Assembly (NCBI RefSeq): GCF_013122565.1
Contig: NZ_CP053258.1
From: Escherichia coli
GTDB lineage: Bacteria; Pseudomonadota; Gammaproteobacteria; Enterobacterales; Enterobacteriaceae
Direction: 5' to 3' (one strand)
Length of the DNA stretch: 64,000 nt
Position numbers and translations under genes: made by a program. Positions 1,229 to 57,536 of this stretch are shown one piece after another. The first letter of the stretch is position 1. Each line of letters starts with the position of its first letter. The notes beneath the pieces were generated by a model that saw nothing but the letters and a program-made list of their open reading frames with translations, ran no database searches and had not been told where the DNA came from.

Positions 1229-2404
1229 TTAATGCAATCCAAAAACGTTCAACATGGTAGAAAGTTTGACGCCTGTTTCGCGCCACTCACCCAACGGTGA
1301 CGACGCAGGCACAATCCCCGCTCCGGCAAACAGACGCACCTGATTTTCCCGCAGCTTCGCGCAGCGGATGGTCACCACCCATTCGCCGTTACCTTCGCTG
1401 TCACACCAACCCACGATGCCGCCAAACAGTTCGCGGTCGAACGGCTCCAGTTCAGCAATAACCTGGGTCGCGGCCTGATGCGGGAAACCGCTCAGCGCGG
1501 GGGTCGGATGCAGCAGACAGGCCAGAGTCAGTGCGTTTTCTTGCGAATTCGCTTTACCTTCAAAGGGAGTTGCGAGATGCCACAGCGTCGGCGTGGTAAT
1601 CAGCTGTGGACAGGAGGGAACGTGTAACTCACTACTGCGTTCGCGCAGTACCTCTTTCATCGCCTGAGTCACCAGTTCATGTTCATGGCGATCTTTTTCT
1701 GACGCCAGCAGACGATTACCCGCTTCGCGATCGAGCACTTCATCCGGCTGACGACGCGCGGAACCGGCTAACGGAATGGAGCTAAAACGCTCGCCGTCTT
1801 TACGTAGCAGCAGTTCCGGGCTGGCCCCCAGCAGGACGCCACCATCTGCCAACGGCACATGGAAGTTGTAACTAACCGGGTTTTGCGCAATCAACCGTTC
1901 CAGCAATACGCCACTATCAATGGCGGCGTCAGTGGTGATATCAATCAACCGTGACAACACCACTTTGTCGACCTGCGGCGTGGCGGTAAGTGCGGCAGCG
2001 CGAGCAACCATCTGTTCAAACGTGGTTTGTTCCGGAATTGCCTGGCGTTCCACCACGTTCAGCGACTGGCTGCGGGTGAAACGGCGTGCGGAAGCTTGTT
2101 TTTCCTGACGGGAGAACGACTGCCAGGATTCAGGAATATACAGCGACGAAGGCTGACATGGATCGAAGGGAATCGCCCCGACCATCACCGGATTTTTGAT
2201 GCCCTGCGCTTTGGCGTCGGCAAACAGCGCGGCGAGTTTTTGCTGGAAGGGACTGTCGGGCGAATCCCCATTCACAGCCGGTTCATCGAAGCGGGCGAAA
2301 CATCCTGACGTCGTAAAACTGCGGTACGGCGACATAAAGAAAAAGCGATTGGGCGCAAGTGTTGCCATGGTCTGCTGTACTTCCTCAGCCAGTGACGTAT
2401 CCAT
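1229..2404 (-). CDS. entC: isochorismate synthase EntC
   Basis: ORF track 1229..2416; product [23 protein letters not shown]... recognised as EntC; start placed at the internal ATG giving 391 aa (track frame begins 4 codons upstream at a GTG). Confidence 0.92.
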
Positions 2405-2433
2405 ATCATCCTCCACAAAATGATAAAGGCTTT

Positions 2434-2452
2434 AATAATGATTATCATTTAT
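2434..2452. promoter_or_regulatory. Fur box in entC/fepB divergent promoter region
   Basis: aataatgattatcatttat closely matches the Fur consensus GATAATGATAATCATTATC, about 30 bp upstream of the entC start. Confidence 0.6.
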
Positions 2453-2610
2453 ATTTTCGGTCGCTAACCTAAAAGCAAACGCGCACTATGTCAACTCTTG
2501 AGGTAACGCAATCTGCAACTCGGGGTTGCATCTGGTTGTGGTTACAATGAAAATGAGAAGCATTATTGATGGATTCGCATAAGCGCAATGTGATGGCCTG
2601 CGCCGTTCTG

Positions 2611-2708
2611 CCCCCTCTCCCTTCCAGGGAGAGGGCTGGGGTGAGGGTTAATGCTCGCACCAGTGCTGGCTGTTCCCCTCACCCTCTCCCCAAAGGGGCG
2701 AGGGTACG
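2611..2708. repeat. GC-rich nested inverted repeats in the fepB 5' leader
   Basis: ccctctccc..gggagaggg..gggtgaggg then cccctcaccctctcccc..ggggcgaggg: complementary arms able to form alternative stem-loops; a short burst of high GC within an otherwise AT-rich leader. Confidence 0.45.
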
Positions 2709-2772
2709 GATTGTGCGCTTTGTCGAATTTGTCATTACGCCCTTAACCTTATTAATAACAGGAAGCTGATTT

Positions 2773-3729
2773 GTGAGACTCGCCCCGCTCTACCGCAATG
2801 CCCTTCTATTAACAGGACTTTTGCTTTCAGGAATAGCCGTAGTTCAGGCCGCCGACTGGCCGCGTCAGATTACTGACAGCCGGGGCACTCATACCCTGGA
2901 AAGCCAGCCGCAGCGTATTGTTTCCACCAGCGTCACCCTGACTGGCTCACTGCTGGCGATTGATGCTCCTGTGATCGCCAGCGGCGCGACCACGCCGAAT
3001 AACCGCGTCGCGGATGACCAGGGTTTTTTACGCCAGTGGAGCAAGGTGGCGAAAGAACGCAAACTGCAACGGCTCTATATCGGCGAACCGAGCGCCGAAG
3101 CCGTTGCCGCGCAAATGCCGGATCTGATTTTAATTAGCGCAACCGGTGGTGATTCGGCGCTGGCGCTGTATGATCAGCTTTCCACCATCGCCCCGACATT
3201 AATCATCAATTACGACGACAAAAGCTGGCAGTCGCTGTTAACGCAGCTTGGCGAAATTACCGGGCATGAGAAACAAGCGGCAGAGCGGATTGCACAGTTT
3301 GATAAGCAACTGGCGGCGGCGAAAGAGCAAATCAAATTACCGCCGCAGCCGGTCACTGCCATTGTCTATACCGCCGCTGCACACAGTGCCAATCTCTGGA
3401 CGCCGGAATCAGCACAAGGGCAGATGCTGGAACAACTCGGCTTTACGTTGGCGAAATTGCCCGCAGGGTTAAACGCCAGCCAAAGCCAGGGCAAACGCCA
3501 TGACATCATTCAGCTTGGTGGAGAAAATCTGGCTGCAGGGTTAAATGGCGAGTCACTATTCCTGTTCGCCGGTGATCAGAAAGATGCCGATGCTATTTAT
3601 GCCAATCCACTGCTCGCGCACCTGCCCGCAGTACAAAACAAGCAGGTTTATGCGCTGGGAACCGAGACGTTCCGTCTGGATTACTACAGCGCCATGCAAG
3701 TGCTGGAACGACTTAAGGCGCTGTTTTAA
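2773..3729 (+). CDS. fepB: ferric enterobactin periplasmic binding protein FepB
   Basis: 318-aa ORF with GTG start; signal-peptide-like N-terminus [26 protein letters not shown]; sequence recognised as FepB. Confidence 0.93.
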
Positions 3730-5093: not shown

Positions 5094-6098
5094 ATGTCTG
5101 GTTCTGTTGCCGTGACACGCGCCATTGCCGTGCCCGGATTGCTGTTATTACTGATTATCGCGACGGCATTAAGCCTGCTCATTGGGGCAAAATCACTCCC
5201 CGCTTCCGTAGTGCTGGAGGCCTTCTCCGGCACCTGCCAGAGCGCCGACTGCACCATCGTGCTTGACGCGCGACTGCCGCGCACCCTTGCCGGTTTACTG
5301 GCAGGCGGTGCGCTTGGCCTTGCCGGGGCGTTAATGCAAACCCTCACCCGAAACCCACTTGCCGACCCCGGCTTGCTTGGCGTGAACGCCGGAGCCAGCT
5401 TTGCCATTGTGCTGGGTGCGGCGCTGTTTGGTTACTCATCCGCGCAGGAACAACTGGCGATGGCCTTCGCCGGGGCGCTGGTGGCCTCGTTGATTGTTGC
5501 CTTTACCGGCAGCCAGGGCGGCGGGCAGTTAAGCCCGGTGCGTTTAACCCTGGCGGGCGTGGCACTGGCGGCAGTGCTGGAAGGGCTGACCAGCGGCATC
5601 GCCCTGCTCAACCCTGACGTCTACGATCAGTTGCGTTTCTGGCAAGCCGGTTCGCTGGATATTCGCAATCTTCACACCTTAAAAGTAGTACTGATCCCGG
5701 TATTGATTGCCGGAGCAACCGCGCTATTACTGAGCCGCGCGCTGAACAGTCTGAGTCTCGGCAGCGATACCGCAACGGCGCTGGGCAGTCGCGTGGCGCG
5801 CACACAGTTGATTGGTCTGCTGGCGATTACCGTGCTTTGTGGTAGTGCGACGGCGGTAGTTGGCCCGATTGCCTTTATCGGCCTGATGATGCCGCACATG
5901 GCGCGCTGGCTGGTAGGTGCCGATCATCGCTGGTCGCTGCCCGTCACGCTACTTGCTACCCCTGCCCTGCTGCTGTTTGCCGATATCATCGGGCGGGTGA
6001 TTGTGCCCGGTGAACTGCGCGTTTCTGTGGTCAGTGCGTTTATTGGTGCACCGGTGCTAATCTTCCTCGTGCGACGTAAAACGCGAGGTGGCGCATGA
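5094..6098 (+). CDS. fepD: ferric enterobactin ABC transporter permease FepD
   Basis: ORF track 5082..6098 (MEVRMSGS...); start placed at the second ATG (MSGSVAVTRAIAV..., 334 aa); stop overlaps fepG start. Confidence 0.9.
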   Translation: MSGSVAVTRAIAVPGLLLLLIIATALSLLIGAKSLPASVVLEAFSGTCQSADCTIVLDARLPRTLAGLLAGGALGLAGALMQTLTRNPLADPGLLGVNAGASFAIVLGAALFGYSSAQEQLAMAFAGALVASLIVAFTGSQGGGQLSPVRLTLAGVALAAVLEGLTSGIALLNPDVYDQLRFWQAGSLDIRNLHTLKVVLIPVLIAGATALLLSRALNSLSLGSDTATALGSRVARTQLIGLLAITVLCGSATAVVGPIAFIGLMMPHMARWLVGADHRWSLPVTLLATPALLLFADIIGRVIVPGELRVSVVSAFIGAPVLIFLVRRKTRGGA

Positions 6099-56276: not shown

Positions 56277-57536
56277 TCAACCAATACCCATGCTTTCAGC
56301 CAGTGCTTCCAGCGCCTGTTCAAAGCACGCCAGCGGTGCCCGCACGGTGCCTGCGCCAATCTGCCCGATCCCCGCCTCTTTATGGGCGATACCGGTATTG
56401 ATGAGTGGCGTAATGCCGGTTTCTACCACGCGACGAATGTCCAGTCCCAGGCACGCGCCCTGAAAATCCCAGCCTGGGATCTGCAACTGCATATTGCGTT
56501 CAAGGTAAATTTCCGCCATCTCTTCAGATACCGCCCTGGCCGCTTCCATGCCACCCGCACCGACAAAGCGCGTTACGCCAGGCGCTGCGATCATTGCCGC
56601 ACCTCCGATACCAAAGGTTTCGGTAATCGCGCTATCGCCCATATCCGGGTTCGCCTGCTCCTGCGAGAAGCCGGTGAAAAACAGACCTTGCGGAGTGTTT
56701 ACAGGCGCAGTAAACCAGCGTTCGCCCAGCCCGCTTACCCGAATCCCGAACATATTGCCGTTGCGGGTCATTGCCGTGACGATGCTGCCTGCGCGGATCA
56801 TCGCGCCAGCATCCATCGCCGCCTTGCAGTAAGCCATCGCGAGGTTGAGGAAGAACTGATCGGTCACGCTGAGGAAATCCATCACTTCCGCAATGTGCTG
56901 TTTATCATGATCGAGGCGAGCAATTTGTGGGGCCAGCGTACGCATTAACAGTGCTGAGGAAGCAATATTGCGTTGATGGAACTCATCGCCCATGGTAATG
57001 CCCTGCGCCATCATTGCCGTGAGATCGATACCGCGCTCCATGCGCCCCAGCGCCGCGCTTAATACTGGCATTAACACATCGCGCATCCAGCGATGGCGAG
57101 TCAGGACATCTTCGCCGTAAGCGCCAAAACGCATCACTTTGCCGATACCTTCGTTGAGGTTGCAGTACGCCCGATTGCCGTCGGTCACGTTCTCGACCAC
57201 CAGCATCGGCATACTGGCAGAAGTAATGCCGCCCATTGGCCCGACGGCATTCACATGGTGACAAGGAATGAAGTTCACTTCCCCCTGCTCCAGTATTGCC
57301 AGCGCCTGCGCTTCATCTTTCGCCCAGCCTTCGAACAGACATGCGCCCACGCACGCCCCTTTCATGGGTCCGGTCATCTCCTGCCAGCGCATTGGCGGCC
57401 CGGCGTGAAGCAGTGTTTTGCCCTCGTTTAGTTCGCTGATAAGTGAAGAAGCCGGTTGCACATCCAGCCAGTGTGGACGAGCACGACGAATTTGTTCGAT
57501 AACCGCAGCATTGGCTTGCGCCACTGATGTAAACAT
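56277..57536 (-). CDS. ylbE: YlbE (DUF1116), single uninterrupted reading frame
   Basis: 419-aa continuous [29 protein letters not shown]... Confidence 0.85.

Follow-up and report, generated by a model that had tools for sequence, protein, structure and literature searches.

The G+C-rich block of nested inverted repeats at 2611-2708, in the 5′ leader of fepB, is the already catalogued fepB-entC copy of the E. coli BoxC interspersed repeat, an element that also appears in publications as the PIT element, TMECO and HPG1/HPG2. In the window analysed here (a stretch of 64,000 nucleotides of E. coli contig NZ_CP053258.1), two BoxC units lie in inverted orientation and form the G+C-rich core of a 180-bp insertion. 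We consider it very probable that this insertion is tolerated, selfish or neutral repeat DNA and not a required regulator of fepB. The feature is therefore known, down to the locus; what is added here is the exact 180-bp unit together with its empty site, a count of how often E. coli carries it, the finding that the empty state is ancestral, and a collapsed allele in E. whittamii. The locus is laid out as follows.

Ending at 2416, − strand: entC, the upstream neighbour of the fepB leader
2546-2565, + strand: fepB Fur box AATGAAAATGAGAAGCATTA, conserved across Enterobacteriaceae, with the insertion abutting its 3′ end
2566-2745, no strand: insertion in the fepB 5′ leader, 58% G+C, polymorphic in E. 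coli (filled versus empty sites)
2746-2772, + strand: AU-rich leader and Shine-Dalgarno sequence (ACCTTATTAATAACAGGAAGCTGATTT), native and found in filled and empty alleles
2773-3729, + strand: fepB, with a GTG start, from orthologue annotation

An earlier note, made from the letters of this DNA, had described GC-rich nested inverted repeats inside the fepB leader that could fold into alternative long hairpins. The location was right, and both the word counts and the stability of the fold exceed chance. The complementary words CCCTCTCCC/GGGAGAGGG and CCCTCACCC/GGGTGAGGG are nested within 2611-2708 far more often than expected. CCCTCTCCC was found at 2613 (+), 2627 (−) and 2682 (+) and at no further site in the 64 kb; its expected number in the window is 0.22, and three occurrences were reached in none of 100 shuffles. 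CCCTCACCC, for which 0.30 sites are expected in the window, was found at 2639 (−), 2676 (+) and 5341. The site at 5341 was rejected as a BoxC copy, being a single word in a coding region and a chance match. The alternative hairpins were also borne out, as the repeat search returned overlapping pairings: 2613-2635 with 2682-2704 (I2), 2639-2660 with 2663-2684 (I4), the inner repeat 2613-2622 with 2626-2635 (I8, 100% complementary), and the pairings I6 and I9. When the RNA of 2600-2715 was folded, a stable structure was predicted (−61.3 kcal/mol, z = −3.9), and none of 200 shuffles did as well. The G+C content of the block is 66%, against 37% on its left (2417-2565) and 30% on its right (2746-2772).

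The suggestion that the block could be a Box C-like intergenic repeat proved correct, and more strongly than it had been put, the exact locus being present in the published BoxC/TMECO and HPG tables. TMECO is the motif first named BoxC and later the PIT element (Holder et al. 2015, PMC4666352); it was published as the PIT element by Hoyne et al. (2000). Table 1 of Holder et al. gives TMECO no. 7 as CCCTCGCCCCTTTGGGGAGAGGGTTAGGGTGAGGGG, type A, at K-12 624,579-624,614, and TMECO no. 8 as CCCTCTCCCTTCCAGGGTGAGGGCTGGGGTGAGGGT, type B, at K-12 624,676-624,641; the supplement assigns both to fepB/entC. Table 1 of Kaplan et al. (2016, PMC5100583), where the motif goes by the name HPG1/HPG2, likewise places HPGQ 17 between fepB and entC, with a degenerate HPGQ 18 about 50 nt away on the opposite strand. 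We found TMECO 7 and 8 in the K-12 locus exactly where the table puts them, and base-for-base alignment with the window (no. 8 with 2613-2648, no. 7 with 2675-2704) gave the following features.

2613-2648, + strand: BoxC/TMECO unit of type B, CCCTCTCCC-TTCCA-GGGAGAGGG-CTG-GGGTGAGGGT, orthologue of K-12 TMECO no. 8
2627-2647, + strand: four G-tracts on the fepB sense strand (GGGAGAGGGCTGGGGTGAGGG), from a regex scan; the published putative G-quadruplex- or triplex-forming part (Kaplan et al. 2016, HPGQ 18; Holder et al. 2015)
2649-2674, no strand: spacer between the type-B and type-A units, conserved in paired copies of the family (alignment of fepB, ygfF-gcvP and alx-sstT)
2675-2704, − strand: BoxC/TMECO unit of type A with three G-tracts left, orthologue of K-12 TMECO no. 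7

The window allele differs from the K-12 BoxC copy in both units. The type-B unit differs by one base (GGGAGAGGG here, GGGTGAGGG in K-12), and the type-A unit is 6 bp shorter (TTAGGG on the − strand), which removes loop 2 and one G-tract. The three-block motif (CCCTCNCCC, a loop of 3-5 nt, GGGAGAGGG, a second loop of the TTA/CCG type, and GGGTGAGGG) is found complete at 2613-2648. At 2675-2704 (−), the 6-bp deletion spares blocks 1 and 2 but takes out loop 2 and some of block 3; in K-12 this unit is whole. The type-B (+) and type-A (−) units are about 26 nt apart, and the same layout is present at hrpB-mrcB, ygfF-gcvP and alx-sstT. Frequent inverted pairing of type A with type B units has been stated for TMECO (Holder et al. 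2015, PMC4666352).

The search for other genomic copies, which the earlier note had proposed, showed the block motif to be multi-copy in E. coli: the search matched 22,227 places in 4657 genomes (median 3, maximum 13 per genome). All the K-12 BoxC copies that we fetched are intergenic, as is the window copy between entC and fepB. The best match of the window locus was to E. coli strain ET201 (98.9% over 1.4 kb and 100% over the block). The 6-bp-shorter allele is shared by ∼199 E. coli genomes, largely O26, O103 and O111 strains, counted in the ≥99% and 95-99% identity bands from 108-nt match spans equal to the query.

The G-tracts raise the question of whether the block acts through non-B DNA or RNA, that is, through an intrastrand triplex or a G-quadruplex that modulates transcription or drives local instability. 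The type-B unit retains the three-block triplex motif and four sense-strand G-tracts, and indels are seen at the fepB locus. According to the literature, oligonucleotides of this kind form a triplex or G-quadruplex in vitro, and variability is higher at TMECO loci than at control sites. However, in the literature as summarized by Holder et al. (2015, PMC4666352), PIT elements show no promoter, terminator or in vivo polymerase effects, and the in vivo DMS footprint in the same study gave no protection. Moreover, the type-A unit of the window has lost one G-tract, and the deletions are explained simply by slippage between direct repeats. The published triplex and G-quadruplex functions are proposals, unproven in vivo, and we regard such a role for this block as quite unlikely. 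One other run of four G-tracts was found in the window, at 56725-56747 (−) (GGGATTCGGGTAAGCGGGCTGGG); it has no relation to BoxC.

Comparison of E. coli strains placed the inverted BoxC pair within a longer unit that is either present or absent at this site. The boundaries and outer arms of the unit are listed here.

2563-2565, no strand: TTA directly left of the insertion, a direct repeat with 2743-2745
2564-2587, no strand: left outer arm, an imperfect inverted repeat of 2714-2737 (I3; 24 nt, 71% complementary)
2714-2737, no strand: right outer arm, partly common to the BoxC copies at ygfF-gcvP, alx-sstT and adk-hemH
2743-2745, no strand: TTA, the last 3 nt of the insert at its right end, a direct repeat of 2563-2565

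Strains 28RC1, CFT073 and O145 RM9872 have the empty junction GCATTA/ACTTCATTAATAACAGG (also written GCATTA/ACTTCATT; the slash marks the junction), whereas the window and K-12 are filled. The empty allele reads ...GAGAAGCATTA/ACTTCATTAATAACAGGAAGC... and the filled allele reads ...GAGAAGCATTA/TTGATGG...(180 bp)...CGCCCTTA/ACCTTATTAATAACAGGAAGC..., where the TTA repeat means that the boundary 2566-2745 can equally be written as 2563-2742. This flanking repeat could be a target-site duplication or microhomology. In some E. coli the 1.4-kb query finds its match in a span that is shorter by 180 bp. The entC-fepB spacer is 188 bp long in 28RC1, CFT073 and O145 RM9872 versus 374 bp in K-12. The complementarity of the outer arms (71%) was matched by only 4 of 2000 shuffles; the right arm ends 8 nt inside the insertion boundary. 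Alone, the insert folds to −85.1 kcal/mol (z = −4.5), with the outer arms closing the structure. The same arm-closed insert is obtained in the fold of the full leader, where the AU-rich stretch ahead of the start codon is left with weak local pairs only. The empty leader is predicted to be essentially unstructured.

To count the two alleles, a junction query made of flank 2525-2565 and insert 2566-2604 was compared with 5426 complete E. coli genomes. The whole query was covered, marking a filled site, in 2753 of the 5426. Only the flank half matched in ∼2319, and 354 gave no match. The unmatched genomes include empty alleles of the O157 type with a promoter SNP (TATAAT in 28RC1 vs TACAAT in the window). 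The insertion is therefore absent from at least 2319 genomes (about 43% or more), including CFT073, O157 and O145. The fepB and entC flanks of filled and empty alleles are 97-99.8% alike, which makes the polymorphism a short patch. A large segment introgressed from E. whittamii was considered and rejected on the same fepB and upstream identities. A record titled E. coli SCPM-O-B-8794 has a fepB only ∼92% identical to that of E. coli, comparable to E. whittamii; it is probably a non-coli Escherichia lineage despite its title.

The ancestral state was examined in fepB loci from 80 species-level Enterobacteriaceae genomes, with the Fur box located by fuzzy matching. The Fur box AATGAAAATGAGAAGCATTA was recognizable in 78 of the 80. 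In nearly all of them the distance from Fur box to start codon is ∼27 nt and the BoxC words are absent, once offsets in the FepB N-terminal alignment are allowed for. The insertion is missing from 79 of the 80 loci; E. albertii, two further non-coli Escherichia, Citrobacter, Salmonella, Klebsiella and Enterobacter all have the empty arrangement. Only E. whittamii carries a collapsed remnant at the same point, a 101-bp version (∼1076-1176 of its locus) with both arms and one middle hairpin, CGCCCCTCG-AAGGTT-GGGGCGAGGGG. Its arms are ∼14% diverged from those of E. coli, and it has in common with filled E. coli alleles the right-flank variant ACCTTAT. This divergence, together with the common variant, suggests an old insertion event shared by the two species. 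Given the empty arrangement in nearly all relatives, the insert is derived and dispensable, and probably old. In C. amalonaticus the leader is interrupted at this very position, right after the Fur box GCATTAA, by ∼71 nt of unrelated sequence (∼1073-1160 of its locus). The junction of Fur box and leader in fepB seems to tolerate or attract insertions.

These comparisons bear directly on the other proposal of the earlier note, an RNA element controlling fepB translation or stability. Such a dedicated cis-acting element (a switch, or a stability or translation control) evolved for fepB might be expected from the position of the block between promoter and ribosome-binding site and from its very stable fold with alternative pairings. 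However, at least 43% of E. coli genomes, and almost every other member of the Enterobacteriaceae compared, have an intact leader without the block, and its sequence recurs at many unrelated intergenic sites. The changes between the window and K-12 are uncompensated and include the 6-bp deletion. An Rfam E-value scan of 2300-3000 returned only chance-level miRNA and other hits, far under gathering scores, so the block is without an Rfam match, and the known controls lie at the enhancer and Shine-Dalgarno region. The proposal was thus not borne out, and we judge a dedicated RNA element to be very improbable. The note had itself taken absence of the block from a functional leader in close relatives as the sign of an inserted repeat, and this is what the comparison across Enterobacteriaceae returned.

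The documented post-transcriptional determinants of fepB map to the enhancer and Shine-Dalgarno region at 2746-2775, outside the block. Translation of fepB is determined by its GUG start together with the AU-rich translational enhancer (Hook-Barnard 2007, as cited in PMC7769764). In the 5′ UTR, RyhB has a single favourable pairing site, the Shine-Dalgarno sequence of fepB (Wang et al. 2015, PMC4666370). The documented elements of the leader thus share it with the insert but flank the insertion, at 2546-2565 and 2746-2775, and are kept in filled and empty alleles alike. On the operator side, Fur box 1 of fepB has been published as AAAATGAGAAGCATTATT (PMC5020551), and from this extent the insert abuts the operator. 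The final two bases of this K-12 box (window 2546-2567) come from the insertion, while empty alleles read ...GCATTAAC. The filled and empty boxes each have 5/6 matches to the consensus end, so the edge of the operator differs by allele class. The divergent Fur boxes at 2434-2455 (entC side) and 2546-2567 (fepB side) are 22-nt inverted copies of each other, 82% complementary and separated by 90 nt, as expected from two copies of a palindromic operator.

Within the fepB 5′ leader, the insertion came to lie between the Fur operator, which it follows without a gap, and the downstream AU-rich enhancer and Shine-Dalgarno sequence. Because the fepB promoter and Fur box lie upstream of it, the insert should be transcribed with the leader in the strains that carry it. 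The K-12 leader, which we take to be 217 nt long, would place +1 near 2556, and this length also points to transcription of the insert. A promoter and terminator scan called promoter-like sites on the entC side only, not the fepB promoter, and found no terminator, so that a role of the block as terminator is unsupported. With its outer arms paired, the RNA of the insert would form a self-contained long hairpin and leave the native ribosome-binding region much as in empty alleles. So insulated, the hairpin would be predicted to have at most a modest effect on fepB. Since the arms pair and the ribosome-binding region is left alone, the insert would behave as tolerated repeat DNA. Its internal direct repeats would make it prone to deletion, with indels arising by slippage between repeats; the 6-bp loss in the window, the 79-bp collapse in E. 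whittamii and a 75-bp collapse at alx-sstT would be examples. Retention in about half of E. coli and the old, diverged copy in E. whittamii could nevertheless reflect some benefit.

We compared the fepB copy with BoxC at other loci. The fepB, ygfF-gcvP and alx-sstT copies have ∼125-145 bp in common, a stretch that takes in the central spacer and some of the right arm, and six single K-12 copies have the core and short palindromic extensions in common with the fepB block. In strain NR3838, direct CCCTCTCCC repeats bound the 75-bp collapse of the alx-sstT pair, an event of the type also seen at fepB in E. whittamii; in strain 2009C-3133 the BoxC region of alx-sstT is replaced by a different, very G+C-rich segment of ∼290 bp. 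At adk-hemH, the BoxC unit and a downstream hairpin (∼155 nt in K-12) are replaced in O145 RM9872 and S12 by ∼51 nt with a stem-loop of their own. At ygfF-gcvP the whole segment, ygfF included, differs between strains, and the aaeR-tldD BoxC is present in essentially all genomes. A second clean filled/empty pair with a flanking duplication was found at none of ygfF-gcvP, alx-sstT, adk-hemH and aaeR-tldD. These dynamics fit two categories of Holder et al. (2015, PMC4666352), 'intergenic change' and 'palindrome effect'.

Could the 180-bp unit be mobile, in the manner of a MITE? The BoxC pair, with inverted arms at its ends, would then have entered the leader by transposition, duplicating TTA (or TA) as it did so. 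The clean 180-bp indel with TTA on both sides, the significant complementarity of the terminal arms, the right arm and spacer common to other copies and the ancestral empty state are all consistent with this. Against it, only one site is informative, and at the other polymorphic BoxC loci the DNA has been replaced or has collapsed internally instead of leaving a clean empty site with a duplication. The left arm was found at a median of one place per genome, single-copy at megablast sensitivity, with no high-identity repeats elsewhere; the copies share only the core, spacer and part of the right arm. A plasmid search with the 180-bp unit matched mostly megabase-size or chromosomal-looking records, with no link to mobile elements, and a phage search gave nothing but two weak matches to Campylobacter phages. 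Holder et al. (2015, PMC4666352) likewise found no plasmid or phage association of BoxC/TMECO. The diverged E. whittamii copy argues for an old event rather than ongoing mobility. We know of no transposase for BoxC, and mobility of this kind seems doubtful to us, if conceivable. A bolder version would have the inverted BoxC pair of ∼180 bp with its arms as the original transposition unit, BoxC motifs as the conserved cores of decayed MITE-like elements, and the fepB insertion as an old one, shared with E. whittamii and since spread or lost by short-patch recombination. We offer it tentatively and think it somewhat unlikely; if true, it would give a mechanism for the 'genomic instability' of TMECO loci that is unexplained in the literature.

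Measured against known repeats, the window copy agrees with BoxC/PIT/TMECO/HPG in element and locus, in the inverted layout of type A and type B units found at four other K-12 loci, in intergenic location and in variability from strain to strain. The parts of the published BoxC descriptions drawn on here deal with motifs of 34-41 nt and do not contain the 180-bp unit with outer arms or the exact empty site. ERIC/IRU and other MITE-like palindromes resemble the insertion as long imperfect palindromes, inserted in transcribed intergenic DNA, polymorphic between strains and able to give a long RNA hairpin. ERIC also has a short A/T-rich duplication at its junction, comparable to the TTA repeat that flanks the fepB insertion. 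They have no sequence relationship to BoxC, and recurrent termini and duplications were not found at the BoxC loci compared. REP/BIME sequences are also G+C-rich extragenic palindromes, dispersed in enterobacteria and often co-transcribed with flanking genes, but their consensus is unlike BoxC. REPs are linked to RAYT transposases and to IHF and gyrase binding; to our knowledge, BoxC has no such links.

Beyond correct annotation the finding matters little: a striking structure in a well-studied, iron-regulated leader turns out to be a selfish-type repeat already in the catalogues rather than a riboregulator. It also concerns K-12, the reference for studies of the fepB leader: the K-12 leader exceeds that of other enterics, and of about half of E. 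coli, by ∼180 nt. What has been concluded from the K-12 leader, and claims of regulation by G-quadruplexes or triplexes drawn from proximity to fepB/entC, should be weighed against this polymorphism. The clean filled/empty pair is at the same time a handy natural experiment on the effects of BoxC on expression.

The open reading frame that the earlier note had seen running through the block does exist, but it is mechanical.

2566-2769, + strand: mechanical ORF of 67 aa from TTG or 66 aa from ATG 2569, running through the insert; unsupported as a gene

The frame could be read as a small leader peptide, starting at 2566 or 2569, whose translation is coupled to that of fepB: no stop interrupts it for 66-69 codons in either the window or K-12, and it terminates 4 nt before the fepB GTG. 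However, it exists only in insert-bearing strains, is cut to 33 codons in E. whittamii and has no feature at its counterpart in the K-12 annotation. All base substitutions between the window and K-12 that fall inside it change the amino acid. With the frame broken in E. whittamii and the substitutions non-synonymous, a coding reading was rejected, and a coupled leader peptide appears extremely improbable. Palindromic sequence rich in G+C produces this frame as an artefact, and the ORF is probably not expressed. The block is free of stops in two of the six frames, and other genomic BoxC copies are likewise stop-free on both strands, as expected for palindromes of this composition.
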